Shown here: positions 1,846 through 16,215 of the stretch, piece after piece
Position numbering within the stretch: position 1 is the stretch's first letter
Layout: each line of letters begins with the position of its first letter
Source of the DNA: a virus
Length of the DNA: 16,215 nt
Reading direction: 5' to 3' (one strand)
IMG/VR virus record: IMGVR_UViG_3300032217_000984
Position numbers and translations under genes: made by a program
Notes under the pieces: generated by a model
Told to the model about the DNA's origin: nothing
Database searches by the model: none
What the model saw: the letters and a program-made list of their open reading frames with translations, nothing else

Positions 1846-2997
1846 ATGCCGCGCGTGGGATTCCTCTCGCGCATTTTCGGCTACTCGAACGCCGTGGTGG
1901 TCTACAACACCCCACCCGCGTCGGCACCTGTTGCCATCACGCAGATCCCTGCGGTGGTGCGCGCTATCCAGCTGATTTCCGCCGACATTGCGCGCCTGCC
2001 GATCAACATCGAACGCGAAGACGGCACCCTGGTGGATTCCCCTGTGGCGTCGCTCCTGAACCGGGAAGCCAGCCGCTGGCAGTCTTCCTTTGAGTTCCGA
2101 CGATACCTCACGTCCTGCGCGCTGAATGACGGTAACGGCATCGCCGTCATCCGCCGCGACAACAACGGAATGGTGGTCGAACTGCAGCCCGTGCCCATCG
2201 GCTCCGTGGTGGCCGAGCTGACCGAAGAGGGCGTTCAGTACCGAATCAACAACGTGGTGCTGACGCAGGATCAGGTGCTGCACGTTGGTGCGTTCCCCGA
2301 CCCGATGAACCCGGCGTGGTTCGTGTCGCCGCTGGATGCGTCGGCGTTCGCCATGCGCCTGGCAGCGGACCAAGAGGCAGCACATCGCGCACTGGTTGCC
2401 ACGGGAAGTACGGGCAAGATTGCAATCCGACACCCGGGCGCGCTGGCCGACGAATCCGTCGAAGCCATCCGCAACGCCTGGCAGTCGATGCACGCCACCG
2501 CTGACGGTGCCAGCCGCCCGCTGATCCTGCGGGAAGGCATGACTGCGGAACGCATCAGCCAGGAAACCAGCACCAGCAGCATCGATTCCCGGCGTTTCAG
2601 CGTGCAGGAAATCGGGCGCGCGTTCGGCGTGCCGCCCGAAATGCTGTTCCAGCAGGGCGGCGGCGCGCTGTCCAGCCAGGCGGAAACGGCGCGCGCCTAC
2701 GCCGACGGCGCCATCAGCGCCTGGGCAACGGCATGGGAAGCAGAACTTACGCGCAAGTTGTGCGCGCCTGGCGAGTACGTGACCATTGACACGCGCCCCA
2801 TCACGCGCGGCAGCCTGAAGGATCAGGGCACGGCATGGAGCAAGTTGGTGTTGGCTGGCATCGCCAGCCCGAACGACGCGCGCCTGGCCATCGGCCTGCC
2901 GCCGCTGGTTGGTTACGACACGCCGACGGTGTCCATGCCTGGCGGCGCAGCCGCTGCCGCGTTTGCACCCGACACGGAGGGCACGGGCAATGATTGA
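1846..2997 (+). CDS. Portal protein (HK97-family)
   Basis: 383-aa ORF between terminase and protease. The N-terminal AVVRAIQLISADIARLP, NDGNGIAVI and C-terminal SVQEIGRAFGVPPEML segments resemble conserved HK97-type portal blocks. Confidence 0.88.
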   Translation: MPRVGFLSRIFGYSNAVVVYNTPPASAPVAITQIPAVVRAIQLISADIARLPINIEREDGTLVDSPVASLLNREASRWQSSFEFRRYLTSCALNDGNGIAVIRRDNNGMVVELQPVPIGSVVAELTEEGVQYRINNVVLTQDQVLHVGAFPDPMNPAWFVSPLDASAFAMRLAADQEAAHRALVATGSTGKIAIRHPGALADESVEAIRNAWQSMHATADGASRPLILREGMTAERISQETSTSSIDSRRFSVQEIGRAFGVPPEMLFQQGGGALSSQAETARAYADGAISAWATAWEAELTRKLCAPGEYVTIDTRPITRGSLKDQGTAWSKLVLAGIASPNDARLAIGLPPLVGYDTPTVSMPGGAAAAAFAPDTEGTGND

Positions 2998-3514
2998 AAT
3001 TCGCACCGGGACGCTGCGCGCAGACGCTGGCAAGTTGGGCGGCTATGCCGCCATCTACAACGCGCCGAGCAAGCCGCTGACCATCCGTGGCCTGAACGGC
3101 GGCAAACCGTTCGTGGAACGCATCGCGCCCGGTGCATTCGATGGCATCGAAGGGCGCAACGTGTCGCTGCTCATTGGGCACGACCGCAGCCAGCTGCTGG
3201 CGAACAGTGCCTCCGGCTTGCTGTCGCTCCGTTCCGATGGCACTGGCCTGGCCTACGAAGTGACCCTGCCGGACACCCAGCGCGCCCGCGACGTGCGCGC
3301 GTTGGTGGAAGCAGGCGTCATGACGGAGATGTCTTTCGGTTTCTACGTGAAGTCTGACGCCTGGAATGGATCGGAACGCACCCTGCATTCCGTCGATCTC
3401 CGGGAGATTTCGATTATCGAAGCGGACGGCGCTGCATATCCGCAGACGAGTGCCGAAGCGCGAAACACCAACGCCGGAATCAACCGGCTCAAACTGCGGC
3501 TAAGGAGCGTTTGA
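2990..3514 (+). CDS. Prohead maturation protease (HK97 / peptidase S78-like)
   Basis: The internal ATG at 2990 overlaps the portal stop by 8 nt. Motifs FVERIAPGAF, LLIGHD and SFGF...LREISII match the HK97 prohead protease pattern. Position between portal and capsid also fits. Confidence 0.85.
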   Translation: MIEIRTGTLRADAGKLGGYAAIYNAPSKPLTIRGLNGGKPFVERIAPGAFDGIEGRNVSLLIGHDRSQLLANSASGLLSLRSDGTGLAYEVTLPDTQRARDVRALVEAGVMTEMSFGFYVKSDAWNGSERTLHSVDLREISIIEADGAAYPQTSAEARNTNAGINRLKLRLRSV

Positions 3515-3515
3515 A

Positions 3516-4742
3516 ATGAAGATTTCCGAGATGCATGAGAAGCGCAAGGCGCTTACCGCCGAGCGGGACACGATTCTGACCGCGTCCGAAATGACTGTCG
3601 AGCAGGAAGCGCGCGGCCACGAAGTCGCCAACGAACTGCAGAAGCTCGATGGCGAGATCCGCGCCGCGCAGATGCGCGAGCGTTTCGCGTCCTACAGCGC
3701 GATGGAGAAGGCCGTCGAAGACGGCAACAAGCGCAACACCGATTGGACCGCAACGACCGAGTACCGCGACCAGTGGATCAACTGGTGCCGTGGTGGCCGT
3801 GCGCCGGAAACCCGCGCCATCGACACGTCGTCGTCCAGCGGCGTGCTGGTCCCGAAGATCTACGAAGCCGGGATCCTGAAGTACCTGGAGCGGAACACCG
3901 TGGTCCGCAACCTGGCCGACCTGCGTACGGGCGTCAAGGGCAGCGTGACCATGCGCGTCAACACCCTGGAAACCGACGCGGCTACGTCGTCGTTCTGGAC
4001 CACCGAGTCCAGCAAGACGGCGACGGCCATTGACGGCGCGTGGGCCGAAGTCAACATGAACCCCGTCGGCGGTCTGCCGAAGTCGGAACTGACGCAGTGG
4101 GTTGTGCGGCAGTCGGATTTCGACGTTGAAACCGAAGTCATGGACAATTTGCAGCGGCAGATTGCCCGTGGTTTGGAGTACGGCTACACCATCGGCACCG
4201 GCAGCGATCAGCCCACCGGCCTGTTCCTGCAGAACGCTAATTTCAAGGGCCTGAGCACCGCCTACAGCGCGGCGCACGCCAGCGGTGCAGGTTGGGATGC
4301 TGCATTCACCGTGGCGCGCCTCACCGAGCTGCGCTACAAGACGCTGCCCGCTGAGTACTGGTCGTCCGCTGCGTGGATCATGTCGCAGGACGCGTACTAC
4401 GCCATCGCGCAGCTGGTCTCTGCGTCCGGTTCCAATGTGCCGCTGTTCGTGCCGTCGTCCGACGCTGGCATCACCAATGCGGCGCCGTTCACGCTGATGG
4501 GACGGCCGGTGTACATCGCACCGTACGCCCCGGGCCGTCAGACGGCAGCCGTGTCGAACAGCATCCCGCTCATGTTCGCCAACGTGTCCGAAGCGTTCGC
4601 CATCCGCGAGTGGGGCGGTGTGAATATGTTCCGCGACGATGTGACCACCCCAGGACTGGTCAAGTTCCAGGGCATGGTGTTCACCAACAGCAAGGTGATC
4701 CGGCCGAAGGCCGTCGCCGCGCTGCGCATCACCCTCACCTGA
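3516..4742 (+). CDS. Major capsid protein (HK97 fold) with N-terminal coiled-coil delta-like region
   Basis: 408-aa ORF with an AAGGAG RBS at 3502-3507. It has a charged helical N-terminus (EKRKALTAERD...) followed by a capsid-like core, and lies immediately after the protease. Confidence 0.9.
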   Translation: MKISEMHEKRKALTAERDTILTASEMTVEQEARGHEVANELQKLDGEIRAAQMRERFASYSAMEKAVEDGNKRNTDWTATTEYRDQWINWCRGGRAPETRAIDTSSSSGVLVPKIYEAGILKYLERNTVVRNLADLRTGVKGSVTMRVNTLETDAATSSFWTTESSKTATAIDGAWAEVNMNPVGGLPKSELTQWVVRQSDFDVETEVMDNLQRQIARGLEYGYTIGTGSDQPTGLFLQNANFKGLSTAYSAAHASGAGWDAAFTVARLTELRYKTLPAEYWSSAAWIMSQDAYYAIAQLVSASGSNVPLFVPSSDAGITNAAPFTLMGRPVYIAPYAPGRQTAAVSNSIPLMFANVSEAFAIREWGGVNMFRDDVTTPGLVKFQGMVFTNSKVIRPKAVAALRITLT

Positions 4743-4760
4743 TAGATCCTTTCATCCGGC

Positions 4761-4790
4761 CGGGGTGGGTGGGTTCGCCCACCCACCCCG
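4761..4790 (+). other. Perfect 13-bp stem with TTCG loop just downstream of the major capsid gene (RNA stabiliser/attenuator candidate)
   Basis: Sequence is C GGGGTGGGTGGG TTCG CCCACCCACCCC G. No T-tract follows, so it is not a canonical intrinsic terminator. Confidence 0.6.
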
Positions 4791-4805
4791 CGCTAGGGGA
4801 TCACA

Positions 4806-5285
4806 ATGCCCATCGACCAAACCAAGGTGCGGAACTGGTCCCGAAAGGGACATACCGAAGACGATACCGCGCTGGGCATCGCGTGGGAAGCCGCGAAGCG
4901 CGAGCTTGAGATGCGCACCGGCTGGTGCGTCGATCCCGTCACGCGCACGCAGTACGTCGCTGCGGAACCGAACAGCGACGAACTGCTGGTACGCCTGGAA
5001 CGCCAACCGGTGACGGCCGTGACGTATTCGGATGCCGATGGCACGGCGGGAACGGCAACCTTGGTCACTATCAACGGCATTCAGTACGCCACGATGTTGG
5101 ACGGGCTGTCATATCCGGTGGTGCTGACGGTGTCCGCTGGCACCAACACGCTAAACCCACTGCTCGAAATGGCCCTGCTGCAGCGCACGATTCAGCTGGA
5201 AGCAAGCCGTGGCGACGACACGATGACGCTGCCGGGCGACTACTGGGACCGCATTTGCCGAATGCTCGGCAAGGGCATCGGGTAA
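4806..5285 (+). CDS. Head-tail connector protein (gp6-like)
   Basis: 159-aa ORF, first after the capsid gene. The N-terminal pattern (VRNW.R....DD..L......AAKRELE..TGW) resembles gp6-like head-tail connector proteins. Confidence 0.68.
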   Translation: MPIDQTKVRNWSRKGHTEDDTALGIAWEAAKRELEMRTGWCVDPVTRTQYVAAEPNSDELLVRLERQPVTAVTYSDADGTAGTATLVTINGIQYATMLDGLSYPVVLTVSAGTNTLNPLLEMALLQRTIQLEASRGDDTMTLPGDYWDRICRMLGKGIG

Positions 5286-5288
5286 GCC

Positions 5289-5633
5289 GTGCCCGGACAC
5301 GTTCCAACCGGGATGCTCCGCATCCCCATGACGGTGCAGAACCCGGTGCGAACCGTGGACGCGTTCGGCCAGGCGAACGAAGCGTGGATCAGCATCGGCA
5401 CCGTGTGGTGCCACGTCGAAGTCGCCAACACGATGGAAGTGGTCGATGACATGGGTCCAGCGGTTCGCACCGATTGGCGGATGCTTGCTACCTGGCACCC
5501 GTCGATCACGACACGCAGCCGCTTGCAGTGGACCGACAGTGGCAGCACGCGGACGTTTAACGTGCGCGCCTGCTGGGACCGCGACCAGCGGCGCAGGCGG
5601 CTCGAAATCGAAGCAACGGAGGTGCTGCCGTGA
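5289..5633 (+). CDS. Head closure / head-tail joining protein (SPP1 gp16-like)
   Basis: 114-aa ORF with a GTG start 3 nt after the upstream stop. The pattern LRIPMTVQ...D.FGQ....W..IGTVWCHVE is typical of this family, and the synteny fits. Confidence 0.62.
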   Translation: MPGHVPTGMLRIPMTVQNPVRTVDAFGQANEAWISIGTVWCHVEVANTMEVVDDMGPAVRTDWRMLATWHPSITTRSRLQWTDSGSTRTFNVRACWDRDQRRRRLEIEATEVLP

Positions 5634-6112
5634 TTAAGTTCACCGCTGATTCTTCCTCTGCCCAGGCTGTCCTGAATGGCCTTCCCCGTGCGCTGTCGGA
5701 GTCGATACGGAAAAAGGCCATTCGGGCAGCCCTGCAGCCGTATGTGAAGACCCTACGGCAGAAATGGCAAGCGTCGTCATACCGTGGCAAGGCACCGCAC
5801 CGCAAGGCAATTGCAGCTGCCACGCAGTTGTCTTCCCCCAAGCGCATTGGAAACGGTGATACGGCCACGATCCGCGCGGAGCTGGGCGTTCAGTACGGGC
5901 GCAAAGGCGGTGCAAAGGCCCGCGGACGCCAACGCGTGTACCACTTGCTCGAGCAGGGATTCAGGCACGTTGCATCCGGCAAGTCGGTTCCTGGTGCAAA
6001 CCGCAGTCTGGCATGGTCGCACGCGAATGTGGCGCGCGCCATGCAGGACGTAGCGGACCAAATCATCATCCAGGCACGCAAAGCGTTGGGGGATAAGAAT
6101 GTCCGTAACTAA
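5630..6112 (+). CDS. HK97 gp10-like tail completion / neck protein
   Basis: 160-aa ORF with a GTGA overlap on the upstream gene. It has the gp10-like layout (N-terminal L..LP.AL segment, later HLLEQGFRH resembling the vEfGt block). Assigned partly by position. Confidence 0.5.
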   Translation: MIKFTADSSSAQAVLNGLPRALSESIRKKAIRAALQPYVKTLRQKWQASSYRGKAPHRKAIAAATQLSSPKRIGNGDTATIRAELGVQYGRKGGAKARGRQRVYHLLEQGFRHVASGKSVPGANRSLAWSHANVARAMQDVADQIIIQARKALGDKNVRN

Positions 6113-6503
6113 CATCCATAAGGCGATATTTGACGTGTTGGACGGCACAGGGAACCCAGTCTGCAGCGGTTTGCGCACCGCCGCGACGCCCACCCCGTGC
6201 TACGTCTACGAAGTCACCAGCATGGAAATGGCCGTGCAGATGCGCGGCGCGGGTGCGCTGAACCACTGGACCGTCGGCGTCGAAGTGAACTGCGTTGCCG
6301 ATACGGTGGCTGACGTCTGCACGCTGATTGACGACGTAATCGCGGAACTGGACAACGGCCCGCTAAACTACACGGCATTTAAATGCAGCATCGCGCTGGC
6401 ATCGTTCGCCATCGCGTTTAGCACCGCTACGCCCGACGACGGGCAGCAGGACGCCGAACGCGTCGGCACCATCACATTGACCCTACTGGTCCAGGAGGAC
6501 TAA
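6099..6503 (+). CDS. Tail terminator-like protein (possible DUF3168-type), assigned by position
   Basis: 134-aa ORF overlapping the upstream gene by 14 nt, lying immediately before the tail tube gene. Confidence 0.4.
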   Translation: MSVTNIHKAIFDVLDGTGNPVCSGLRTAATPTPCYVYEVTSMEMAVQMRGAGALNHWTVGVEVNCVADTVADVCTLIDDVIAELDNGPLNYTAFKCSIALASFAIAFSTATPDDGQQDAERVGTITLTLLVQED

Positions 6504-6505
6504 CT

Positions 6506-6889
6506 ATGGCACTTATCACAGGCTACGGTGGCACGGTTTCGTTCAGCGGGCAGTCTTCCACGAAGGCGAAGTCGATCACCATCAACATGGAACGCGACTC
6601 TTTGGACATTACTGCGCTTGGAGATTTCATTACCAAGCGCGCCCCAGGCCGCGTCCGTCGTTCTGGAACTTTGTCGCTCTATCGCGATTCGTCAACGGAT
6701 ACCGCGTTGAAGTCGCACATGTTCCCGACGACGTTGGTTCTTGCTACTGGCGCAACGCTGACGTTGTCCTACACCGATCAGGGAGGAGTCGCGTATTCAT
6801 CAATGAATGTGCAAATCACTAGCGCGTCGATTTCCGATGATGGCACCGGTGCAGCAATGTGGGAGCTCACCTGGGAGGAGCAGGGTTGA
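6506..6889 (+). CDS. Major tail (tube) protein, small type
   Basis: 127-aa, beta-rich sequence in the position between terminator and chaperone. Its size resembles short tube proteins of GTA-like or small siphoviral tails. Confidence 0.55.
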   Translation: MALITGYGGTVSFSGQSSTKAKSITINMERDSLDITALGDFITKRAPGRVRRSGTLSLYRDSSTDTALKSHMFPTTLVLATGATLTLSYTDQGGVAYSSMNVQITSASISDDGTGAAMWELTWEEQG

Positions 6890-7167
6890 GCATCGACCCG
6901 GCCAAGATCGCACCAGCCGCGCCGCGTACCGTCGAAATCAACGGTATTGGTCCTGTGCTAATTCGACGCCCGCGCCTGGCTGACTTGCTGACGGCAAACG
7001 CGAACCCGTACTGGTGGGCAGCCTGTTGCACCTGCCCGGACGGATCGCCGCTGTTTGCGCCCGGCACCGACATTGGATCCATTGACGCGGAAATCGCCGG
7101 GGCACTGATTGCTGAGGTAAATGCCACCCGCCCTACACAGCCGCCGAAAGGCGGCACTGGCGCATAG
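6886..7167 (+). CDS. Tail assembly chaperone (gpG-like)
   Basis: TTG 6886 overlaps the tube gene stop (TTGA) and sits 6 nt after a strong GGAGGAG (6873-6879). GTG 6859 is an alternative start. The sequence (V.INGIG.V.IRR....D......C.C.PDGSPLF) and the position before the tape measure fit a tail chaperone. Confidence 0.55.
   Translation: MSIDPAKIAPAAPRTVEINGIGPVLIRRPRLADLLTANANPYWWAACCTCPDGSPLFAPGTDIGSIDAEIAGALIAEVNATRPTQPPKGGTGA
7141..7154 (+). other. CCGCC-GAAA-GGCGG hairpin (GNRA-type tetraloop) at the 3' end of the chaperone gene
   Basis: Read directly: a 5-bp perfect stem with a GAAA loop, 11 nt before the TAG stop at 7165-7167. Confidence 0.5.
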
Positions 7168-7190
7168 CCAGCCCGGAGCAGCGACTACAG

Positions 7191-7334
7191 ATGGATGCAG
7201 CACTATCCAACCACCTGACCAGTGAGGAACGCAGAGAACACCTGCTAGGCGTTATTGCCTGCGCGCTGACAGGGCAGCGGCCGCATCAACTGTTCCCATG
7301 GCTACGCACGGATCCGGGGGTTTTCAATGGCTGA
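7191..7334 (+). CDS. Possible gpT-like extension ORF of the tail chaperone (47 aa from ATG 7191; frame open from 7116)
   Basis: Hand translation gives MDAALSNHLTSEERREHLLGVIACALTGQRPHQLFPWLRTDPGVFNG*. It lies in the -1 frame relative to the chaperone, fills the otherwise empty 7168-7326 gap, and ends overlapping the tape-measure ATG (ATGGCTGA). It has no obvious RBS of its own. Confidence 0.3.
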   Translation: MDAALSNHLTSEERREHLLGVIACALTGQRPHQLFPWLRTDPGVFNG

Positions 7335-8031
7335 CAGGTCCATGAAGGCAGTGATTCGCGCAGAGGTTGACCCGCGTGGTGTTGTCAGCGGCGTAGCAGC
7401 AACCAACAAAGAACTGCAGAAGCTCAACAAAACTGCAGCCAGCGCGTCTACGTCGGCGGCTATCTCCGCTGGCATCAGCATGGCGCAGATGGGTATGTCT
7501 GCGCTGCAGCAGGTATTTGCGGCTGTTGAACGTCGTTTTGGCGAGCTGAACAACATCGCCAACAAATATTCCGCAGCAGCAGCCGGTGCGCGCATGGCCG
7601 CCGACGTGGCGATCATCCAGGACAATGTGCGTATTGCGAACGCATTGGCACCAGGCGCGATTCAGGCTTCTCAAGCGGAAGTTGATATCAAGGCAGGCGA
7701 AGCGGCGCGTATGCAACGCAACGCTGGTGCAGTCAACTCCGGCATGGGAGCTTTTGCGCGTACGAAGGGGAACCTTGGCGCCATCACGGACATGGGAACC
7801 GAGATCGCAGGTACAGCGTTGGCTGGAATCGAACAGTTGCTCGGCGGAGATCTATCCGGTTTCATGAAGACCAACGAAGCCGGTCGCGCCCAAATAGGAG
7901 AACTGTTTAACGCGCAGAACTACGCTTACGCCAATGAAACGCCAGGGCGGGGCATGGCTGGCGATACGCAGATGGCCGAGCAAACCGAACTGTTAAGGCA
8001 AATCCGAGACGGTCTGAGGGGTGGACGCTAA
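7327..8031 (+). CDS. Tape measure protein, unusually short (234 aa)
   Basis: Ala/Gly/Gln-rich and predicted helical, with small hydrophobic stretches. It sits directly after the chaperone pair and before the tail-tip genes. Confidence 0.6.
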   Translation: MADRSMKAVIRAEVDPRGVVSGVAATNKELQKLNKTAASASTSAAISAGISMAQMGMSALQQVFAAVERRFGELNNIANKYSAAAAGARMAADVAIIQDNVRIANALAPGAIQASQAEVDIKAGEAARMQRNAGAVNSGMGAFARTKGNLGAITDMGTEIAGTALAGIEQLLGGDLSGFMKTNEAGRAQIGELFNAQNYAYANETPGRGMAGDTQMAEQTELLRQIRDGLRGGR

Positions 8032-8948
8032 TGGGCATTGTGCAAGTCATCGAACGGGTAAACAGCCGAACATGGAATCTCCAGCAGAAAGGCACGGAAT
8101 GCAGTGTCACGTGCACATATTTGGCGAGCTGGCTTCCAAGCAGTGCCGGCGATCCATACCCAGGCGAAGGCACCATCTTTGTCGATTCAAACTTTCCGAA
8201 GCCAACCACTAGGGCTCCGGCAAGTCTGCACGCAAACGATGCTTACGTGAAACAGATGATTTGCCGAACGGTGACCATGGCGCCGGAAACATCAAGGCCA
8301 TACACCTGGCAAGTTCAGGCCACCTACACTAGTAATTTCAACCCGTATTCCACTGGTGTATATGCGCGAATAACGAAATCAGCCAGCGAACGCACGCTCG
8401 GCCAATACCGCGAATTTACCTCCATTCCAACCAACGGCACGGTTGCCTTCCCACCGGCCGACATGGGCGGCAACAAACTCGACCTCCACGGCACGCCAAG
8501 GCCGCTGTCGGTGTCACAAGAGACGATCACGCTGGAATATCTCCATGACCGTACGACCTCAGCGACCAATACTGTGGCCGATCCGGATTGGTACACCTTT
8601 GGCTTGGCGCAAGGAACGCGCAATTCGGTAAACATGTTTAATGGCGTTTACGCGCCTGGCTCATTGCTTTACAAGGGTTGCCAGGCAACGCTTGAACAGG
8701 AGTCGTGGAGACTGGTACACGTTTGGCTATTCGATAACTACCAGCACCTTGAGCAAATCACTTGCCCAAACCCAACCGGCCAACCAGCGCTTGCTGCCAC
8801 TGGTACGTTCGATGGCGTCACCGGATTCATGCAGGCGACAAAAGTCGGCTGGTATCAACGCTATCCAACGCTCAGAAATCACTTGTCGATGCTTCCTGCA
8901 AACATCCAGACTGAACTGACCAGCGCGTACCCGGCGGTAGCACCATGA
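8031..8948 (+). CDS. Tail-tip protein (distal tail / hub candidate), no recognised family
   Basis: 305-aa ORF with a TAATG overlap on the tape measure gene. Function is assigned by position only. GC content is lower than in the head module. Confidence 0.45.
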   Translation: MGIVQVIERVNSRTWNLQQKGTECSVTCTYLASWLPSSAGDPYPGEGTIFVDSNFPKPTTRAPASLHANDAYVKQMICRTVTMAPETSRPYTWQVQATYTSNFNPYSTGVYARITKSASERTLGQYREFTSIPTNGTVAFPPADMGGNKLDLHGTPRPLSVSQETITLEYLHDRTTSATNTVADPDWYTFGLAQGTRNSVNMFNGVYAPGSLLYKGCQATLEQESWRLVHVWLFDNYQHLEQITCPNPTGQPALAATGTFDGVTGFMQATKVGWYQRYPTLRNHLSMLPANIQTELTSAYPAVAP

Positions 8949-9469
8949 CATACATGGACCCAATATTTAGCCAGGGATTGATGGGTAAGGCCAACAGCCA
9001 CGTTTGCAATGCCTGGACAAACGCTGCTCGGTTTGCGCAGAGCAGTGCTGAAGCTGTTGATTGGGCGCAGCAGCAGGCAAGACGTCCGCTGGTGATGGCG
9101 CGCGCACTTTGTCAGATTACCAATGCAAGCGTCATTCCAGGAAAGGTGAACCAGTGGAATTACACCATCAGCCTCTGGCACGTTCCTCCTCCGTCAGGAA
9201 CCGGCGGATACTTCCCACCTGCCGATACGTGGTTCACCACAACGAAGTGCAAGAACCTGCGCGAGTACTGGAACGACATAACAAACGTGGACGGCATGAG
9301 CTTGAGCTCGCCACCTGCGTCAATTGGACCGGTCGGAAGCTTTTGGACTGGGACACATTGGACTACGTCAGAGCTTCGTGCTCATGCTGAAGTTTCCATT
9401 GTCTACGACACTTCCGGAGAAGCCTACTTTTACTTCGATCGTCCAAACCCCATGAGGTGTACCGAGTAA
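8945..9469 (+). CDS. Tail-tip protein, no recognised family
   Basis: 174-aa ORF with an ATGA overlap on the upstream gene. Trp/Thr-rich. Function is assigned by position only. Confidence 0.4.
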   Translation: MTYMDPIFSQGLMGKANSHVCNAWTNAARFAQSSAEAVDWAQQQARRPLVMARALCQITNASVIPGKVNQWNYTISLWHVPPPSGTGGYFPPADTWFTTTKCKNLREYWNDITNVDGMSLSSPPASIGPVGSFWTGTHWTTSELRAHAEVSIVYDTSGEAYFYFDRPNPMRCTE

Positions 9470-9515
9470 TGCCGAACCTTCAGCTTGCTACCTACATTGG
9501 AACGGAGGTGCTCCA

Positions 9516-10865
9516 GTGATCCAAAACATGATGCGCAAAGCGATGTTTGGTGAACCGTCGCTCAACGGCCCCAAACTGTACGGCAGCACTCGGGCATCCA
9601 CGTTTGTCAAGGACCTTGCTTCCGGCGCTGACAGCCTGGACGTCGTATTCATCGGCGATAGTAACACCATGTCGGCGGTCGCCGGTTCTTGGGGCTACCA
9701 CAACGGAATAAGCGCAGCAATGAACGCCAGGGGATGGGCTTGCTATGGAACGGCTGTCTACCCAACAATGACAGGATGGACGCCCGCCGGTGGTGCGTAT
9801 TCGCTCGGCGGATGGCAGAGCAATTGTTACCTGATGCAACCAACCGGCAACCTTGCCAGCGGAAACGCGTCGGGTGGAGGTACGGCATACCAAACGTGGA
9901 CGCCTGGATCAAATTGGACGCGATACGGATCGTACACAGCGTCCCCGCCAGCAAAGGATGATTGGGCTTACATCGCTTCCGGAACGTACTCGGACAACTA
10001 CAACGCGGTCGAACTGTTTGCAGCGCATCCGCTCAACTCCAATTCGCTCACGCTGCACCACCGAATCATCTACGGCACGTTCACCTTTGGTACTGGATCG
10101 TTTCGGGGCCGCACCCGTGCGTACAACGACGGTACGGTGTACGCAACCGGGGCTTCGCAATCGACGCTTGGCGGTTCGTACTCCGTCAATGCGTACGAAT
10201 ACTCGTTCACGCCGCAGGGCGTGTATCTGAATTCCTCATGGAGCGGACCGACAGCTACTGGACCGTGCGCCATCCTGTCTCACAGCATCTACTGCAAGCG
10301 CAAGGGGTGGTCTGTCACCAGCCACGGCTACATTACTGGCGGCGACAGCACCACGATTGCCAGCGTGATTACGGGGATTGGGAATACCCCTTTGCAGAAT
10401 CAACTGCAAGAGCTACGCGCCAGGCAGATTTCCGCGGGGGGAACGGGGCGAGTGTTGATCGTGGCACACTCCGGAATCAACGGTGCGGACACATCGACCA
10501 CCTGGACGACTGCCCATCAGAACATTTGGGACACCTACAAGGCTGCATGGTCTGCGCTCGGATTTCCTGCCAATGATCTTGCAATGGTTTCGTTTGTTGG
10601 TGTTCAGAGGAACTCCGCGGACACAAGCAACAATTCGGCAAGCCTTGCTGCTGTTCGTGACGGAGCGAAGACGTTTGGATTGCAGGCAAATGGGCTCACC
10701 GTTGCCCACATGCCGTCGATCATCACGTACTCCGAGCTGATCGGTCCACCGTATCTCTATCAGACGGGAACTACTGGCGACGCCCATCTGTCGGGCGGTT
10801 CCGGCAGCACGACCGACGGCTACCGGGAAGTGTCCGACCGTCTACTTACGGCGTTGCTGGCATGA
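9516..10865 (+). CDS. GDSL/SGNH-type esterase-like protein (candidate receptor-modifying tail fibre, or alternatively a lytic enzyme)
   Basis: GTG start 7 nt after GGAGG (9504-9508). Block I-like VVFIGDSNT (GDS at nt 9654-9662), block III-like VAHSGINGAD and a C-terminal GDAHL. The D-x-H spacing is not the canonical DxxH. Confidence 0.5.
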   Translation: MIQNMMRKAMFGEPSLNGPKLYGSTRASTFVKDLASGADSLDVVFIGDSNTMSAVAGSWGYHNGISAAMNARGWACYGTAVYPTMTGWTPAGGAYSLGGWQSNCYLMQPTGNLASGNASGGGTAYQTWTPGSNWTRYGSYTASPPAKDDWAYIASGTYSDNYNAVELFAAHPLNSNSLTLHHRIIYGTFTFGTGSFRGRTRAYNDGTVYATGASQSTLGGSYSVNAYEYSFTPQGVYLNSSWSGPTATGPCAILSHSIYCKRKGWSVTSHGYITGGDSTTIASVITGIGNTPLQNQLQELRARQISAGGTGRVLIVAHSGINGADTSTTWTTAHQNIWDTYKAAWSALGFPANDLAMVSFVGVQRNSADTSNNSASLAAVRDGAKTFGLQANGLTVAHMPSIITYSELIGPPYLYQTGTTGDAHLSGGSGSTTDGYREVSDRLLTALLA

Positions 10866-11167
10866 AGCTTGCTGCGGCCATCATCGCGCTGTCGCTCGCC
10901 GGTTGCACCAACCACACCGCGGCTATTGCCCATTCGGCCATTGACGCCCGCCAGGCGTTGGGGTCCGCCATCGTCCACGTAGACGCCGCGCGCCGCGACC
11001 TGGACACGCTGCAGGCGTCCGTGGACGAAGTATCAATGCACGTTGCTTTTGTTTCGGACGACGAGAACCAGATTTATGCCACGCTGCAGTACGTTTCCGT
11101 GGCGGCAATTGTCATCGGCGGCGCAGCCGCCCTATACACCATTCGGAATTGGATACCAATCCCATGA
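10862..11167 (+). CDS. Lipoprotein with C-terminal transmembrane helix (u-spanin-like topology; alternatively Llp/Cor-like exclusion lipoprotein)
   Basis: Signal peptide plus lipobox MKLAAAIIALSLAG|C. Helical middle region. C-terminal hydrophobic LQYVSVAAIVIGGAAALYTI followed by RNWIPIP. ATGA overlaps at both ends. Confidence 0.6.
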   Translation: MKLAAAIIALSLAGCTNHTAAIAHSAIDARQALGSAIVHVDAARRDLDTLQASVDEVSMHVAFVSDDENQIYATLQYVSVAAIVIGGAAALYTIRNWIPIP

Positions 11168-11298
11168 ACCTGGCACCATGGCAATACACGATATGGATGG
11201 CGTCCCTGCTGCTCGTCACCTTCGCGTCGGGGTGCAGCATCGGGTTGACGGCAGGCCGTAAGCAGAAAGTGAAGGCATCGAATGCTCGCAAGCGCTGA
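11164..11298 (+). CDS. 44-aa single-pass membrane (or small lipo-) protein, not in the supplied ORF track
   Basis: Hand translation gives MNLAPWQYTIWMASLLLVTFASGCSIGLTAGRKQKVKASNARKR*. Its ATG overlaps the upstream stop (ATGA). It has a hydrophobic core, then a basic tail, and ASGC is a weak lipobox. Confidence 0.45.
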   Translation: MNLAPWQYTIWMASLLLVTFASGCSIGLTAGRKQKVKASNARKR

Positions 11299-11395
11299 AA
11301 GTCTCCTGGGCAGTCTCGCATTCGCGGCTGCGATGGCCCTGTCCGGCCTGATCGCCGGATACCTGGTCTGCCGGCGGAGCAAGGAAACGAAGTGA
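11282..11395 (+). CDS. 37-aa single-pass membrane protein, not in the supplied ORF track
   Basis: Hand translation gives MLASAESLLGSLAFAAAMALSGLIAGYLVCRRSKETK*. It overlaps the upstream micro-ORF by 17 nt, and its stop overlaps the GTG of the next gene (GTGA). One TM helix plus a basic tail. Confidence 0.4.
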   Translation: MLASAESLLGSLAFAAAMALSGLIAGYLVCRRSKETK

Positions 11396-12219
11396 GCAGA
11401 AAACGCTGCTGCTGCGGAGGATCTCCACCACCGGCTTATCCGTGCCAGCCGTGCCCGTCTGGCGAAGGGCACGAATGGATCGTGCAAGTCATCACTGATG
11501 GCATCATTGGTGACAGCGCAGGCTATGGCGTTGTAAATGACATCGACTATTACCAATCATGTCTGGCCGGTGACTGCGGTCGCCGGATGTTTGTCAGGCG
11601 TGGCGGATCAAATACGGATCTATCGTTTTGCGATGAAGTGTGCGATTCCATCGTGGATAGTCCTGGTGCATCTGACGCTGGTGACCACACGATCAGATGG
11701 TCATTCTGTAGCGTGGTAAACCCTACGGACTTACCAGGTAGTCCGTACCTACCAGACATCCTCAACGACCAGGAGGGAGCCGTGACAATTGAAGCTGTGC
11801 TTCCAAACCGGCAGTGGGATTTCACCAATTGTGTACCTTTTGGTGGCGGCATCCCTGGAGAGGATTGCGCGACCATTATCAAAGTGTCTTTTACGTATTC
11901 CGATACGTTCACTTATCCGCAATGGGATGACGTAGGCGACGGTTGTTTCAGCACGACTCGCACCATCACCATGCCGACGCAAGTTTGGACTTGTTGGTAC
12001 GCACGCCGCGTCGCAGCTGGGCAGTTTTTTGCAGAGGGCACGTACTACCTGCTGCGTTGCGAATATCCAGCCGCGTACGACACAGTGGGCGGAAACCCGC
12101 CGTTCTACAAGTGCCGGATCGGCAACGGCGTGGTTTGTTCGTCCCAGCACGGCGTTTCAATATCACCACCGACCATATGGAAACCACCCGCCAACATCAA
12201 CCTGGTGCGCCTCTCCTGA
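11392..12219 (+). CDS. Cysteine-rich protein of unknown function (17 Cys in 275 aa; N-terminal RKRCCCGG)
   Basis: Long ORF coupled to the upstream membrane micro-ORFs. I recognise no family. Paired Cys spacings are CQPC, C..DC and C...C. Confidence 0.55.
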   Translation: MSRKRCCCGGSPPPAYPCQPCPSGEGHEWIVQVITDGIIGDSAGYGVVNDIDYYQSCLAGDCGRRMFVRRGGSNTDLSFCDEVCDSIVDSPGASDAGDHTIRWSFCSVVNPTDLPGSPYLPDILNDQEGAVTIEAVLPNRQWDFTNCVPFGGGIPGEDCATIIKVSFTYSDTFTYPQWDDVGDGCFSTTRTITMPTQVWTCWYARRVAAGQFFAEGTYYLLRCEYPAAYDTVGGNPPFYKCRIGNGVVCSSQHGVSISPPTIWKPPANINLVRLS

Positions 12220-12254
12220 CCCGCCTCCGCTACCGGTGGAAGGGCGAAGAGCAG

Positions 12255-12458
12255 ATGCGGTGCTTTCACATCGTGGAAGGCGAACCCGTGGCTGCCGATT
12301 GTCCGCCAAAGTTCACCGGCCTGGGCGACGTGATCGCCGACGGCACAAAGGCGCTCGGGGTACACCCGTGCGGCAAGTGCAAGAAACGCCAGGCGTGGCT
12401 GAACCGCTGGACGCCCGCCTGGCTGGCAGGTCTGATATCGCGGATTCGTTCCCGTTGA
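12255..12458 (+). CDS. 67-aa CxxC mini-protein with amphipathic/hydrophobic C-terminus
   Basis: Internal ATG 12255 of the 11943..12458 frame, preceded by GGAAGGGCGAAGAG. Sequence MRCFHIVEGEP...GLGDVIADGTKALGVHPCGKCKKRQAWLNRW. The upstream part of that frame overlaps the Cys-rich gene and looks non-coding. Confidence 0.45.
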   Translation: MRCFHIVEGEPVAADCPPKFTGLGDVIADGTKALGVHPCGKCKKRQAWLNRWTPAWLAGLISRIRSR

Positions 12459-12459
12459 A

Positions 12460-12858
12460 TTGTGGTGGATTGTGGTGCAGATTGACTACAATCCTGGAAT
12501 GAATCCAAGCATCCGGACGGCTATGGAAAGACGCGACGCCACCAGGGGCGAATGGTGGCTGGCGCGCATGGATACAGACCCGCCAGGCCAATGGACGCTG
12601 ACGGCAGACCCGGCTGGCCCGTGGGATTGGCGTTTCAAGGTGGGGTCTTGCAAGTCGCGCGCGGTGCAACGCCTGCGCGCAGCTGCAGATAGGGAAGCGA
12701 ATAACAGGCGCAGGTTACTGGCCACGCCTGAACACGCAAAAAAGTGTGTTACGGGGCAGGGAAATCTACTTGCAATTCCGGGACTGACCGATACTATCTC
12801 CGCCAAGCGCGGATTGCACCAGTTTGCGGTGGATGCTGATAACGTTGTCCCTGTTTAA
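12460..12858 (+). CDS. Hypothetical protein (start uncertain: TTG 12460, GTG 12472/12475 or ATG 12499)
   Basis: 132-aa ORF, Trp/Arg-rich. Last gene before the AT-richer intergenic gap. No family recognised. Confidence 0.4.
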   Translation: MWWIVVQIDYNPGMNPSIRTAMERRDATRGEWWLARMDTDPPGQWTLTADPAGPWDWRFKVGSCKSRAVQRLRAAADREANNRRRLLATPEHAKKCVTGQGNLLAIPGLTDTISAKRGLHQFAVDADNVVPV

Positions 12859-12932
12859 CAGATTGCAATTTATCATAACACGCATCCCACCACTTTAGCG
12901 AACCTTTCCGCGCTCCAGCCATTGGAGCGAAG
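12859..12932 (+). promoter_or_regulatory. Largest intergenic gap; candidate early promoter/operator region
   Basis: It is the AT-richest stretch of the window. It contains the ATTGCAAT palindrome (12862-12869), a TATCAT -10-like hexamer (12871-12876) with no well-spaced -35, and a GCTCCA-GCCAT-TGGAGC hairpin (12912-12928) covering the GGAG RBS of the RHH gene. Confidence 0.3.
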
Positions 12933-13148
12933 ATGAACGGACACGATGAAAGGAAGACGCGGAAGCGCCGACGGGCCGCAGTTCTTGCGGCAGAACCAGC
13001 GAAGCAGATCAGGATTGGGGAATCGGTCTATCAGTCGCTGATTGCCGAAGCGGTGGTTGCCAAGCGCAGCGTGCGTGGCCAGGCTGAATACCTGATCACG
13101 ATGGGCATCCAGCGCGCGCTAGAACTGGAAACGCGGGGTGCCGCGTGA
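12933..13148 (+). CDS. Ribbon-helix-helix (Arc/MetJ/CopG-like) DNA-binding protein
   Basis: 71 aa with a basic N-terminal arm (RKTRKRRR), then IRIGESVYQSLIAEAVVAKRSVRGQAEYLITMGI, which fits a strand-helix-helix pattern. First gene of the replication block. Confidence 0.55.
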   Translation: MNGHDERKTRKRRRAAVLAAEPAKQIRIGESVYQSLIAEAVVAKRSVRGQAEYLITMGIQRALELETRGAA

Positions 13149-13918
13149 GTGCCATCCAGTTGCACAGCCCGATGGAACTGCACACCCGCAACCAGCAGGC
13201 AATCACTGCCGTGCGGGAGGTGGTGCAGACCCACTACATGAACCGCATCCAGGGGCGCGCCTACCTCATGGTGGCAGGGGCGCAGGCTATTGCCACCGCC
13301 CTGGGCTACACGACGGGCATCGAATCGGTGCGGCATATTCCGGCCACCGATGACCTGCCGGGCTACTGGGAAGCCACCGCCACCGTCATGCAGTCGGGGC
13401 AGGTGGTCGGGCGTGGCGTCGCAGCTGTGTTCGACGACGAACGCCCGTGGAACACCCGCCCACACTTCGCACGCCAGGCGATGGCGCAGACCCGCGCAAC
13501 CGGCCGAGCGTTGAAGGGCGTCATGGGCTGGGCGTGCGCCATGATCGGCGCAGAAACGTCACTGGCTGAGGAGATGCCGCAGGAAGGCGCTACGGTGCCC
13601 CAGGATGGCACGGAAGGCGTCAAGCGCATTCCGGCCCGTCCGGCTGCTCTGAAAGTGTCTAAAGGCAATGCTGGGGCGACACGCGAGATTCGCGGAATTT
13701 GTGCGGGAGTCAAGGAACTGACCAGCAAGGCCGGGAAGCCGTACTGGCGAATTGCCTTGGAGGGGGAACCCGGCAAGCCGGACCCCGAGTGGACTTCCTT
13801 TAAGCCGGTGCCGGACATGGCTGGCCGCATGGTCAAGGTGGTGCTGGAATCGAAGGTCAACGCGAAAGGGGAGTCTGGCGACATTGCCCTGGACGTGATT
13901 GATTTGGAGGTTGACTGA
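13145..13918 (+). CDS. Possible single-strand annealing / recombination protein (RecT/ERF-like motif) with C-terminal OB-like domain
   Basis: The FARQAMAQTRATGRALKGV segment resembles the conserved helix of phage annealases (compare the RecT AMAKKTAIRRLFK-type motif). A nuclease gene follows. This is a weak, motif-level call. Confidence 0.3.
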   Translation: MSAIQLHSPMELHTRNQQAITAVREVVQTHYMNRIQGRAYLMVAGAQAIATALGYTTGIESVRHIPATDDLPGYWEATATVMQSGQVVGRGVAAVFDDERPWNTRPHFARQAMAQTRATGRALKGVMGWACAMIGAETSLAEEMPQEGATVPQDGTEGVKRIPARPAALKVSKGNAGATREIRGICAGVKELTSKAGKPYWRIALEGEPGKPDPEWTSFKPVPDMAGRMVKVVLESKVNAKGESGDIALDVIDLEVD

Positions 13919-14496
13919 TGCGGTGGACGCCTGAATACGTGCTAGACGGCGCGGATCAGGTGTATTGCCGCACCACGGCGACGAATCGCCACGCGGTGCG
14001 TCGGGCTTCCTACTTGGCTGATCGCGGAGTGACGCGTCAGTGGAAGACGGAAGGCGAGCAGCTGCGCGTTGATTTCGTCGGCGTCGGCGGTGAATTGTGC
14101 GTCCGAAAGTGCTTGGAAATGCCACAGCAGTGGGATGACCGGGAAACCGAAGGGCGACACGACCTGATCTACCAGGGCCACCGCATCGACGTGAAGACAA
14201 CCACCAATTCCGATCCTTGGCTGATCGTGCGGAAGACGGCGTTGCACGTGGACGCCTATGTGCTGGTGAATTACTGCGATGGACGGTTTAGGGTCTGCGG
14301 TTGGCAGACTGAAAGAATGGTCAAAAGTGAAGAGAACACCTGGAAGTGGGAACACGCCTACACCCTCAAAGAGCAGGCGCTTCGATGCATCACAGAATTG
14401 CGAGAGTGGGCAGGGGCGGATCCACCCAGGGCAGATATTTGCCCTGGGGGCTGCCTTGACGCCTACCGAAAGGTACGTGGCGATTGCGCTGGCTGA
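13918..14496 (+). CDS. PD-(D/E)xK superfamily nuclease
   Basis: GVGGELCV ... HDLIY ... IDVKT gives the E / D / (D/E)xK arrangement of restriction-endonuclease-fold nucleases. TGATG overlap with the upstream gene. Confidence 0.5.
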   Translation: MRWTPEYVLDGADQVYCRTTATNRHAVRRASYLADRGVTRQWKTEGEQLRVDFVGVGGELCVRKCLEMPQQWDDRETEGRHDLIYQGHRIDVKTTTNSDPWLIVRKTALHVDAYVLVNYCDGRFRVCGWQTERMVKSEENTWKWEHAYTLKEQALRCITELREWAGADPPRADICPGGCLDAYRKVRGDCAG

Positions 14497-15064
14497 CTAT
14501 GGGCAGCGAATCCACCCGAGCTTGGCGCACCTTTGCGCAAAGACGGGGCTGCACCGCAACACACTCAGCCGTGCAATTTGCTCCATGAGGGCGAAAGGCA
14601 TAATCAGGACTTACGGCACCGGCAAGGCGCTAACGTACACCCTTGATATGCACTTTAAAGGTGACGGTACCGTCACCTTAAAGGGTACGCACCATCACCT
14701 TAAAGGTGACGCACCGTCACCTTTAAAGGTACGGGATCCTAACTACCAAAGAACTACTAAAGAACCACCCGCGGCTGACGCCGCAAATGGGGGGCGGGAA
14801 GGGTTCGATGAATTGGTCCAAAGGATCCGAGTCCGTGACCCGAGAGCCGACATTGACGCGCAGCGCCGCGTGTGTTCGCGGGTGATGGAGCAGCATGGAC
14901 TTGCCAAGGAAGACATTCCGCCAGCGTGGCGGCTGTTGTGCCTGAACTGGGCGCGCACTGGCAACGCGCCGTACGACACTTTGCAACGCATCGTGACCAG
15001 CCTGGAGGGCGCGCGCGACGTTCGTGCCGTCGTCCTGCACAAGATCAAGGGGGTGGCAGCATGA
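14456..15064 (+). CDS. Replication initiator, lambda-O-like (N-terminal winged-HTH, iteron-containing linker, C-terminal domain)
   Basis: LTPTERYVAIALADYG....PSLAHLCAKTGLHRNTLSRAICSMRAKGII is HTH-like. The start is uncertain: TTG 14456 after GGGGG, or GTG 14477 after GAAAGG. ATG 14279 would overlap the nuclease gene by 218 nt and encodes an R/S/G-rich junk-like peptide. Confidence 0.55.
   Translation: MTPTERYVAIALADYGQRIHPSLAHLCAKTGLHRNTLSRAICSMRAKGIIRTYGTGKALTYTLDMHFKGDGTVTLKGTHHHLKGDAPSPLKVRDPNYQRTTKEPPAADAANGGREGFDELVQRIRVRDPRADIDAQRRVCSRVMEQHGLAKEDIPPAWRLLCLNWARTGNAPYDTLQRIVTSLEGARDVRAVVLHKIKGVAA
14651..14732. repeat. Candidate origin of replication: four dyad-symmetric iterons (consensus about TCACCTT(T)AAAGGTGAC) spaced 22-23 bp apart
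   Basis: Copies lie at 14651-14665, 14672-14688, 14694-14710 and 14716-14732. A perfect 18-bp palindrome GGTGACGGTACCGTCACC lies at 14660-14677. All are inside the initiator ORF. Confidence 0.7.
14741..14765. repeat. Tandem 11-mer AACTAC(C/T)AAAG x2.3, AT-richer; candidate DNA-unwinding element next to the iterons
   Basis: AACTACCAAAG (14741-14751), AACTACTAAAG (14752-14762), then AAC. It begins 9 bp after the last iteron. Confidence 0.45.
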
Positions 15065-16159: not shown

Positions 16160-16173
16160 TGCCACGAAAGCAG

Positions 16174-16198
16174 CCCCCCCCCGCCCCCCCGGGGGGGG
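16174..16198. other. C9-G-C7-G8 homopolymer block at the genome junction; C7G7 is self-complementary. Candidate packaging/cos-related element, or part of the TerL N-terminal coding sequence.
   Basis: Read directly. The C7G8 part is duplicated at 1-15. Confidence 0.5.
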
Positions 16199-16215
16199 CC
16201 ATTCCTGTTGGGCAC
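16184..16215. repeat. Right copy of the 32-bp direct terminal repeat
   Basis: Identical to bases 1-32. Confidence 0.95.

Follow-up and report, generated by a model that had tools for sequence, protein, structure and literature searches.

A Cys-triplet leader on hypervariable proteins of uncultured phages: a possible exchangeable tail-distal adhesin cassette

What is the role of a phage protein that carries 17 cysteines in 275 amino acids (aa), and why are its first ten residues kept when the rest of the protein is exchanged? These questions are raised by a gene at positions 11392 to 12219 (+ strand) of the IMG/VR record IMGVR_UViG_3300032217_000984, which was analyzed over its whole length of 16,215 nucleotides (nt) and is referred to below as the window; the gene and its product are called the target. 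The first ten residues (the leader) proved to be the sole element common to the target and at least 15 otherwise unrelated Cys-rich protein families. The gene overlapping the 3' end of the target (the partner) is half constant and half matched to the body that follows the leader. The explanation that we tentatively prefer, from these sequence patterns, is that the target may be an exchangeable tail-distal adhesin and the partner its cognate chaperone or adaptor, with a Cys-based (metal or disulfide) junction.

The target family and the Cys-triplet leader

The target is composed of the leader (M-S-R-K-R-C-C-C-G-G; 11392 to 11421, +), with its Cys triplet at codons 6 to 8 (11407 to 11415), a body with 12 further Cys beyond the leader, and a conserved C-terminal strand (PPTIWKPPANINLVRLS). 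The start codon is GTG, with AAGGA 6 nt upstream, and overlaps the stop of an upstream 37-aa open reading frame (ORF) as GTGA; homologs have an ATG start at the same residue. An earlier note, made from the sequence of the window, had reported a 275-aa ORF with 17 Cys (about 6%), a CCC at residues 6 to 8, and a CQPC at residues 18 to 21, and all of these were confirmed. The 17 Cys (residues 6, 7, 8, 18, 21, 57, 62, 80, 84, 106, 147, 159, 185, 201, 223, 241, and 249) amount to 6.2% of the target versus 1.5% in the other 27 proteins of the genome (binomial P = 1.7e-6). The C(x3)C motifs that the note gave in the plural come down to one (residues 80 to 84), the other pair being C-x4-C (residues 57 to 62). 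Of the Asp, Gly, and Thr richness that it described, the first two hold and Thr is not enriched (6.9% versus 7.7%); Pro, Tyr, and Cys are also high, and Lys, Glu, and Leu are low.

The target family is real, constrained, and rare. Homologs numbered 22 clusters in a set of 5.8 billion proteins and 39 representatives in one of 1.84 billion; all are metagenomic and 240 to 350 aa in length. Across 38 members, with identities down to 23%, C57, C62, C80, C84, C185, and C241 are invariant, and C6 to C8, C18, C147, and C249 are at least 90% conserved. The invariant residues of the family are mostly Cys, Trp, Tyr, and Gly. An AlphaFold2 (AF2) model of the target is all-beta, in keeping with the beta-rich sequence noticed earlier (predicted local distance difference test score [pLDDT], 83; predicted template modeling score [pTM], 0.83). 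Residues 1 to 11 (pLDDT of <50) are the sole disordered part of this model.

That the target belongs to no recognizable family, as the note had stated, was borne out by the profile searches, which gave no match at an E value of ≤1 in Pfam, PHROGs, or NCBIfam. Neither a profile search against PDB sequences nor tblastn against 50,697 GenBank phage records found a match, and no prophage copy was found in 185,579 species genomes. The structure prediction and Foldseek comparison proposed in the note yielded a confident model and no match in PDB or BFVD (best E values of 0.06 to 0.4; template modeling scores of <0.2). The target thus matches no known tail-fiber, receptor-binding, or baseplate family by profile or fold (Pfam, PHROGs, PDB, and BFVD).

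The leader extends far beyond this family. A search of IMG/VR with the 93-aa partner protein as a query returned at least 137 loci, 80 of which were fetched. In 55 of the 62 evaluable loci, the gene ending at the partner start encodes a Cys-rich protein with the leader (150 to 640 aa, 13 to 47 Cys), most commonly in the form M-S-[RK]3-C-C-C-G-G. These leader proteins sort into 17 BLAST clusters. Profile-profile comparison linked just two other clusters to the target family (probability of 97 to 99%); for the remaining clusters, alignment with the target family was confined to the first 10 to 35 residues. A DNA pattern for the leader only had 21 matches in IMG/VR, every one of them (21/21) at the start of a Cys-rich ORF, on contigs of 35 to 72% GC; the complete ORFs encode 155 to 2372 aa. 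In a much larger metagenome collection, about half of 31 matches were real long ORFs, the others being chance ORFs of 9 to 41 aa. Judged by sequence, then, at least 16 Cys-rich families of 155 to 2372 aa carry one leader on bodies mostly without detectable kinship. Several of the leader-pattern loci have no partner that a regular expression detects; at one of them (L109), the partner module is divergent and was missed by the expression.

The Cys triplet is written with seven TGC/TGT codon combinations, and its TGC:TGT ratio is that of other Cys codons; therefore, the constraint is on the protein and not on the DNA. The same seven combinations rule out a DNA-level cause of the TGCTGCTGC run. 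The residues preceding the triplet are of a polybasic or a hydrophobic type, with MSGILNAS-CCC in larger phages, MRFF-CCC in others, and MKLGL as a further variant, and the triplet alone is constant. A palmitoylation-type motif, to which the note had likened the basic cluster plus CCC, received no support here; the basic cluster is not universal. Two export signals were also rejected. For a lipoprotein (signal peptidase II) leader, there are 4 to 9 residues before the triplet, with no lipobox and no hydrophobic core; for a Tat signal, RR occurs in many leaders and is absent from the MSGILNAS, MRFF, and MKLGL variants, and a Pro/Gly-rich segment follows, with no hydrophobic region.

The bodies of the sister proteins were as hard to place as that of the target. 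Pfam searches gave no match for ten cluster representatives and nothing significant for 19 leader proteins (18 sisters and the target); two weak, sub-threshold matches, to an RCC1-like propeller and an Ig-like domain, came from the giant L109 protein and a protein of L117. Searches with four sister proteins against GenBank phages (tblastn) found no match, and searches with two giant sister proteins against PDB (phmmer) found nothing meaningful. The L109 protein (1848 to 8966 of its contig) has 2372 aa and 82 Cys, begins with MSRKRCCCG, and is the one with the weak propeller match. The 202-aa gene downstream of it bears a divergent GSGD...CGC..RR module. L109 was recorded together with L106, L120, and L121, as AT-rich phage contigs (35 to 38% GC). 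On L142 (382 to 3399), a 1006-aa protein that starts with MSRKRCCCGC has just 10 Cys, and the leader is therefore not confined to Cys-rich bodies.

The partner gene and exchange between phages

The partner gene (g94; 12177 to 12458, +) shares 43 nt with the 3' end of the target and encodes 93 aa with 4 conserved Cys. Across loci, the partner is bipartite. Its N-terminal 25 to 75 residues vary with the body cluster and track it, and its C-terminal module, GLGDxxAxxTKAxGVxPCGxCxxRQxxLN (GLGD...CxxC), is constant. For example, the N-terminal half "LGTITI.GVSLPI.DC.SW" goes with 600-aa bodies in two small phages (L056 and L089) and a larger one (L095), and "R.RY.W.GE..RCF.I..GEPV..C" goes with the target family in the window and in L009. 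The last residues of the partner are of two types matched to the type of leader: a basic leader occurs with a TPGWL tail at a ratio of 34:1 (the tail in the window is TPAWL...), and the LVPF..ENPPP tail occurs with a nonbasic leader, including the MSG type, in 10 of 11 cases. In the example pairs window/L009 and L056/L095, leader and partner tail types follow the phage backbone and not the body. This argues that the body and the N-terminal half of the partner move together as a unit, with the leader and the partner tail staying with the backbone.

Some exchanges are recent. The 305-aa, 174-aa, and 37-aa genes that precede the cassette have identities of 94%, 99%, and 100% between phages L013 and L068, whose bodies, of 280 and 595 aa, are unrelated. 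At the other extreme, L009 (a 43.5-kb contig with an unrelated backbone) has the body and the partner as the sole genes in common with the window; BLASTP of the L009 genes adjoining the pair against the tail genes of the window found no similarity. Several loci show the position of the pair. In L091, L097, and L098, it lies 1 to 3 genes after recognized tail-fiber genes; in L124, a 168-aa leader protein is encoded two genes after a recognized tape measure protein; in L009, the pair is among structural genes, apart from the spanin-like gene of that phage. In the larger phages L087, L091, and L124, it does not adjoin membrane-protein genes. The target gene thus resembles known fiber systems in lying distally in the tail module and in combining backbone-constant with exchangeable parts, and the partner resembles them in a variable part that matches the body cluster, a likeness that was read from sequence comparison.

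The partner of the window had no match in Pfam or NCBIfam. Its L009 homolog matches phrog_32048, for which no function is assigned there. A GLGD..T..G..PC..C..R...LN module was also observed at the N terminus of gp37 of Nonlabens phage P12024L (L102; NC_018272, 6977 to 7336), a cultured phage of Bacteroidota; its gene is two genes upstream of the large terminase gene, and no Cys-triplet protein is encoded nearby. The module thus has a wider occurrence than the cassette. A literature search found no description of a Cys-triplet leader or of a Cys-rich phage receptor-binding protein; as far as our searches reach, the leader, the Cys-rich bodies, and the GLGD/CxxC partner are undescribed.

The genome and its neighboring genes

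The window is a complete HK97-like siphovirus genome of about 16.2 kb from an uncultured lineage. An exact 32-nt direct repeat is present at both ends (1 to 32 and 16184 to 16215 of 16,215 nt); therefore, the genome is complete and circularly assembled, with about 16,183 bp. Every gene is on the + strand. The genes for the large terminase, portal, S78 protease, and HK97-type capsid protein come first and are followed by those for an adaptor, a head-closure protein, and a tail-tube-like protein. The tail part continues with two small chaperone-like ORFs, a 234-aa tape-measure-like protein, the conserved 305-aa and 174-aa proteins, and a 449-aa protein. Three small membrane-protein genes, the target, the 93-aa partner gene, recombination and replication genes, and an HNH nuclease gene complete the order.

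Megablast of the window against GenBank phages found no relative, and its capsid protein is <24% identical to any of theirs. A profile of the major capsid protein detected a sole relative in the 185,579 species genomes, a 15.7-kb contig binned into a riverine Pseudomonadota metagenome-assembled genome. This contig has the same cassette. A Pseudomonadota host is weakly hinted at by that one binned contig.

Five genes are syntenic in relatives of about 16 kb: those for the 101-aa, 44-aa, and 37-aa proteins, the Cys-rich gene, and the 93-aa gene. The presence of small membrane-protein genes beside the target had been noticed earlier, and they are real. The 101-aa protein (10862 to 11167, +) combines a lipoprotein signal at its N terminus (LAGC; MKLAAAIIALSLAGC) with a transmembrane helix at its C terminus, the rare architecture of unimolecular spanins; it matched no family in Pfam, PHROGs, or NCBIfam and is kept across the lineage at 28 to 96% identity. 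Of the larger phages, L009 and L098 have similar genes close to their leader proteins. The 44-aa protein (11164 to 11298, +), with a lipobox-like FASGC and a basic tail, is a small lipoprotein or single-pass membrane protein. The 37-aa protein (11282 to 11395, +) is a holin-like single-pass membrane protein with a basic C terminus, and it is its stop codon that overlaps the target start.

Farther upstream, the 449-aa protein (9516 to 10865, +) comes from a second variable slot, filled in relatives by proteins with a glycine-rich domain (Gly_rich_2) or an endosialidase beta-barrel; the slot is therefore the classical receptor-binding or tail-fiber slot. A GDS motif (VFIGDSNT) close to the N terminus of the 449-aa protein recalls SGNH esterases, with no profile match. 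Neither this protein nor the conserved 305-aa protein (8031 to 8948, +) matched Pfam, PHROGs, or NCBIfam, so that the target, contrary to the note, is not the largest unassignable protein of the genome. The 174-aa protein (8945 to 9469, +) is a conserved tail-tip protein whose family ends in an invariant FDRPNPxRC (9440 to 9466 in the window), found in about 50 distinct homologs and often as their very last residues. We regard it as a candidate docking partner of the target. Its AF2 model is poor (pLDDT of 65), and Foldseek was uninformative. A neighbor of the leader protein in L009 ends with PNPIDGTC.

Several further features of the window were recorded. The two small ORFs between the tail-tube-like and tape-measure-like genes (6859 to 7167 and 7191 to 7334) are at the position of tail assembly chaperones, whose ORFs a programmed frameshift commonly joins. 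Three tandem 22-nt repeats (ACCGTCACCTTAAAGGGTACGC-like; 14669 to 14734) lie within an HTH_36 replication-initiator-like gene (14279 to 15064) and are a candidate iteron-type origin of replication. A long C-run/G-run tract (CCCCCCCCCGCCCCCCCGGGGGGGG; 16160 to 16198) between the HNH and terminase genes is a possible cos/packaging region; the window has no recognizable small terminase gene. ARAGORN called an 88-nt tRNA-Gly(GCC) at 573 to 660 (-), inside the terminase gene, which is probably a false positive; Rfam gave no tRNA match at the gathering score. A scan of 9000 to 13400 for promoters and terminators found nothing above chance.

Possible functions and their implications

A constant part that would meet the virion, an exchangeable body, and a helper that matches the body by half are the reasons for which we rank an exchangeable tail-distal adhesin first. 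Target and partner would then be an exchangeable cassette of two genes for host interaction, located distally in the tail/late operon. The 275-aa product would be a compact, Cys-stabilized, all-beta adhesin, whose body would bind a structure on the host surface, the extreme diversity of bodies reflecting selection on host range. The N-terminal half of the partner may recognize the adhesin body specifically, as either a folding chaperone or a permanent adaptor. The leader, the GLGD...CxxC module, and the backbone-specific tail of the partner would make up the constant junction by which the adhesin docks at the tip of the tail. That the leader is kept across very different base compositions suggests contact with chemistry (a metal-thiolate site or a disulfide knot) or with an equally conserved element of the partner (CxxC), and the junction would probably be a shared metal-thiolate site or an interchain disulfide knot. 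Virion location, binding between the two proteins, Cys chemistry, and receptor binding are what we infer for the target from the patterns described above.

Other observations are consistent with this explanation. A high content of Gly, Pro, Tyr, and Cys and a low one of Lys, Glu, and Leu are as in surface-binding beta proteins, and the weak RCC1-propeller and Ig-like matches in sister proteins of up to 2372 aa are to domains of a binding type rather than to enzymes. The alternative receptor-binding or virion protein suggested in the earlier note is favored in direction by the hypervariable slot, the exchange as a unit, the distal tail position, and the adhesin-type domains of the sisters.

A number of points weigh against an adhesin. 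No cultured relative was found in the GenBank phage searches with the window, its capsid protein, the target, or the sisters, and Foldseek (PDB and BFVD) found no structural similarity to a known fiber, spike, or receptor-binding protein. A separate classical receptor-binding slot is already present upstream (the 449-aa gene), and in the small phages three lysis-like membrane-protein genes stand between the tail genes and the target. Cys-rich proteins are unusual in virions, which are assembled in a reducing cytoplasm. The constant "anchor," of about 10 residues, is far shorter than known fiber anchors; the AF2 model of the target is a compact monomer and not a fiber; and the candidate docking partner, the 174-aa protein, was modeled poorly.

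In function, the cassette comes closest to fiber-plus-chaperone cassettes and to the receptor-binding heads that lactococcal phages can swap, and it is a member of neither, every test of sequence and fold having failed. A modular architecture of tail-fiber chaperones was reportedly described by North et al. in Nat Microbiol in 2019. As in lambda Stf/Tfa, Mu S/U, and P2 H/G, the pair is distal in the tail module, bodies are swapped among phages and the virion-meeting end remains with the backbone, and a small gene just downstream has one constant half and one that matches the variable part of the fiber. The target differs from these systems in having no sequence or fold similarity to them, a constant part of only about 10 residues with a Cys triplet, and a compact, Cys-rich beta body instead of an elongated trimeric fiber; in its partner, the constant module is C-terminal and contains Cys. 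The receptor-binding proteins of lactococcal siphophages (p2 and TP901-1) have exchangeable head domains. As with the target, a compact, beta-sandwich-type module is swapped between otherwise similar baseplates; unlike the target, they have a shoulder/neck anchor of tens to hundreds of residues, are not Cys-rich, and lack a co-varying downstream partner.

For the chemistry of the junction, Tam et al. are said to have reported in 2013 an iron-sulfur cluster in the lambda tail-tip protein gpL and its relatives, which would be a precedent for Cys-ligated metal centers with a structural role in siphophage tail tips. In gpL, four Cys lie in the C-terminal domain of a conserved hub protein, whereas the triplet of the target is at the extreme N terminus of a hypervariable protein. 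The target does not group with gpL-type iron-sulfur proteins, having no match to a Phage_tail_L or gpL-like hidden Markov model (Pfam and PHROGs) and a different Cys pattern. The gpL cluster is mentioned in PMC13243795. A chemical analogy for CCCGG, in which adjacent Cys followed by Gly at a chain end could staple oligomers, may be drawn with proteins that differ from the target in being eukaryotic and secretory. Collagen III (GPCCG) and the N-terminal Cys segments of collectins form interchain cystine knots next to Gly in trimeric extracellular proteins.

Among the alternatives, the one that survives best, and is still unlikely, is that the target is a late, nonvirion protein that acts on the envelope. 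Released or membrane associated at the end of infection, it would bind a component of the host envelope, for example, to mask receptors, exclude superinfection, or shield progeny from debris, and the leader would be a membrane-affine or lipid-modified anchor cooperating with the adjacent small membrane proteins. The target gene does follow directly on three small membrane-protein/lipoprotein genes, to which it is translationally coupled, and both the polybasic and the hydrophobic residues before the triplet are membrane-affine; hypervariability would also suit a factor matched to receptors. However, the target has no signal peptide, lipobox, or hydrophobic segment and thus no known route to the periplasm or outer membrane, and we know of no bacterial cytoplasmic S-acylation system. 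The pairs of L087, L091, and L124, located away from membrane-protein genes, and the sister proteins of 1000 to 2372 aa, implausible as exclusion factors, further count against it.

It is less likely again that the target belongs to a lysis cassette, as the missing muralytic or envelope-breaching effector of the lineage with the partner as its regulator. The idea draws on a real gap, since no recognizable endolysin, muramidase, amidase, or peptidase family was found in the window or in 108 non-head proteins of eight related genomes (L001, L004, L014, L016, L019, L027, L043, and L103), and on the endolysin-like position of the target in small phages, after spanin-like and holin-like genes. A slot in which at least 16 bodies of 155 to 2372 aa occur, unrelated and with no common core or catalytic motif, cannot, however, encode a conserved essential enzyme. 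The invariant residues of the target, moreover, are mostly structural, and in L009 and other larger phages the pair is apart from the spanin-like gene. A conserved enzyme or endolysin was rejected as an explanation; there is no muralytic domain in the target (Pfam, PHROGs, and NCBIfam), and the bodies of relatives are unrelated.

Equally improbable is a cytoplasmic, metal-binding effector with a cognate partner (an anti-defense, host-takeover, or toxin-immunity-like pair), an idea suggested by the high content of conserved Cys, the lack of an export signal, and the effector-immunity-like layout of a variable protein and a co-varying small one, and opposed by the location at the end of a late structural operon rather than among early genes, by a partner that, unlike immunity proteins, keeps a constant module and a backbone-specific tail, by the few CxxC pairs of the typical zinc-site kind, and by the absence of toxin or defense domains from the leader proteins in Pfam, the PADLOC library not having been searched. 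Polymorphic toxin/immunity pairs likewise have a short conserved N terminus, a variable remainder, and a cognate small protein downstream. They differ in that the whole body of the target varies and not just a C-terminal tip, that the partner keeps a constant module, and that the setting here is a late structural operon with no toxin domains found in the leader proteins (Pfam). Target and partner do not fit such a pair, with no significant Pfam match in 19 leader proteins and a constant module in the partner.

Even if the adhesin explanation is wrong, a ten-residue leader that is conserved across very different base compositions is unexplained by current phage biology, and the puzzle of its presence on bodies mostly without detectable relation to one another holds. 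If target and partner are indeed an exchangeable adhesin cassette, the Cys-triplet leader and the GLGD/CxxC partner would be an easily recognized signature by which genes for host recognition could be located in uncultured phages, from freshwater and other environments, with tail genes that otherwise defy annotation. The known receptor-binding proteins would gain at least 16 new families, including the target family, the sole one modeled, with a fold unmatched in PDB or BFVD. The attachment chemistry would be unusual, with Cys or metal in place of a large protein-protein anchor, and could serve phage retargeting. A broader proposal, which we hold to be doubtful, is that the leader is a near-universal docking tag by which hyperdiverse, Cys-stapled adhesins of 155 to 2372 aa are plugged onto the tails of very different phages (35 to 72% GC, genomes of 16 kb to >60 kb), through a metal-thiolate or disulfide link shared with the conserved GLGD/CxxC adaptor. 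If that were true, the cassette would represent a new general plug-and-play system of host range, and its receptor-binding proteins would form a new class with folds of their own.

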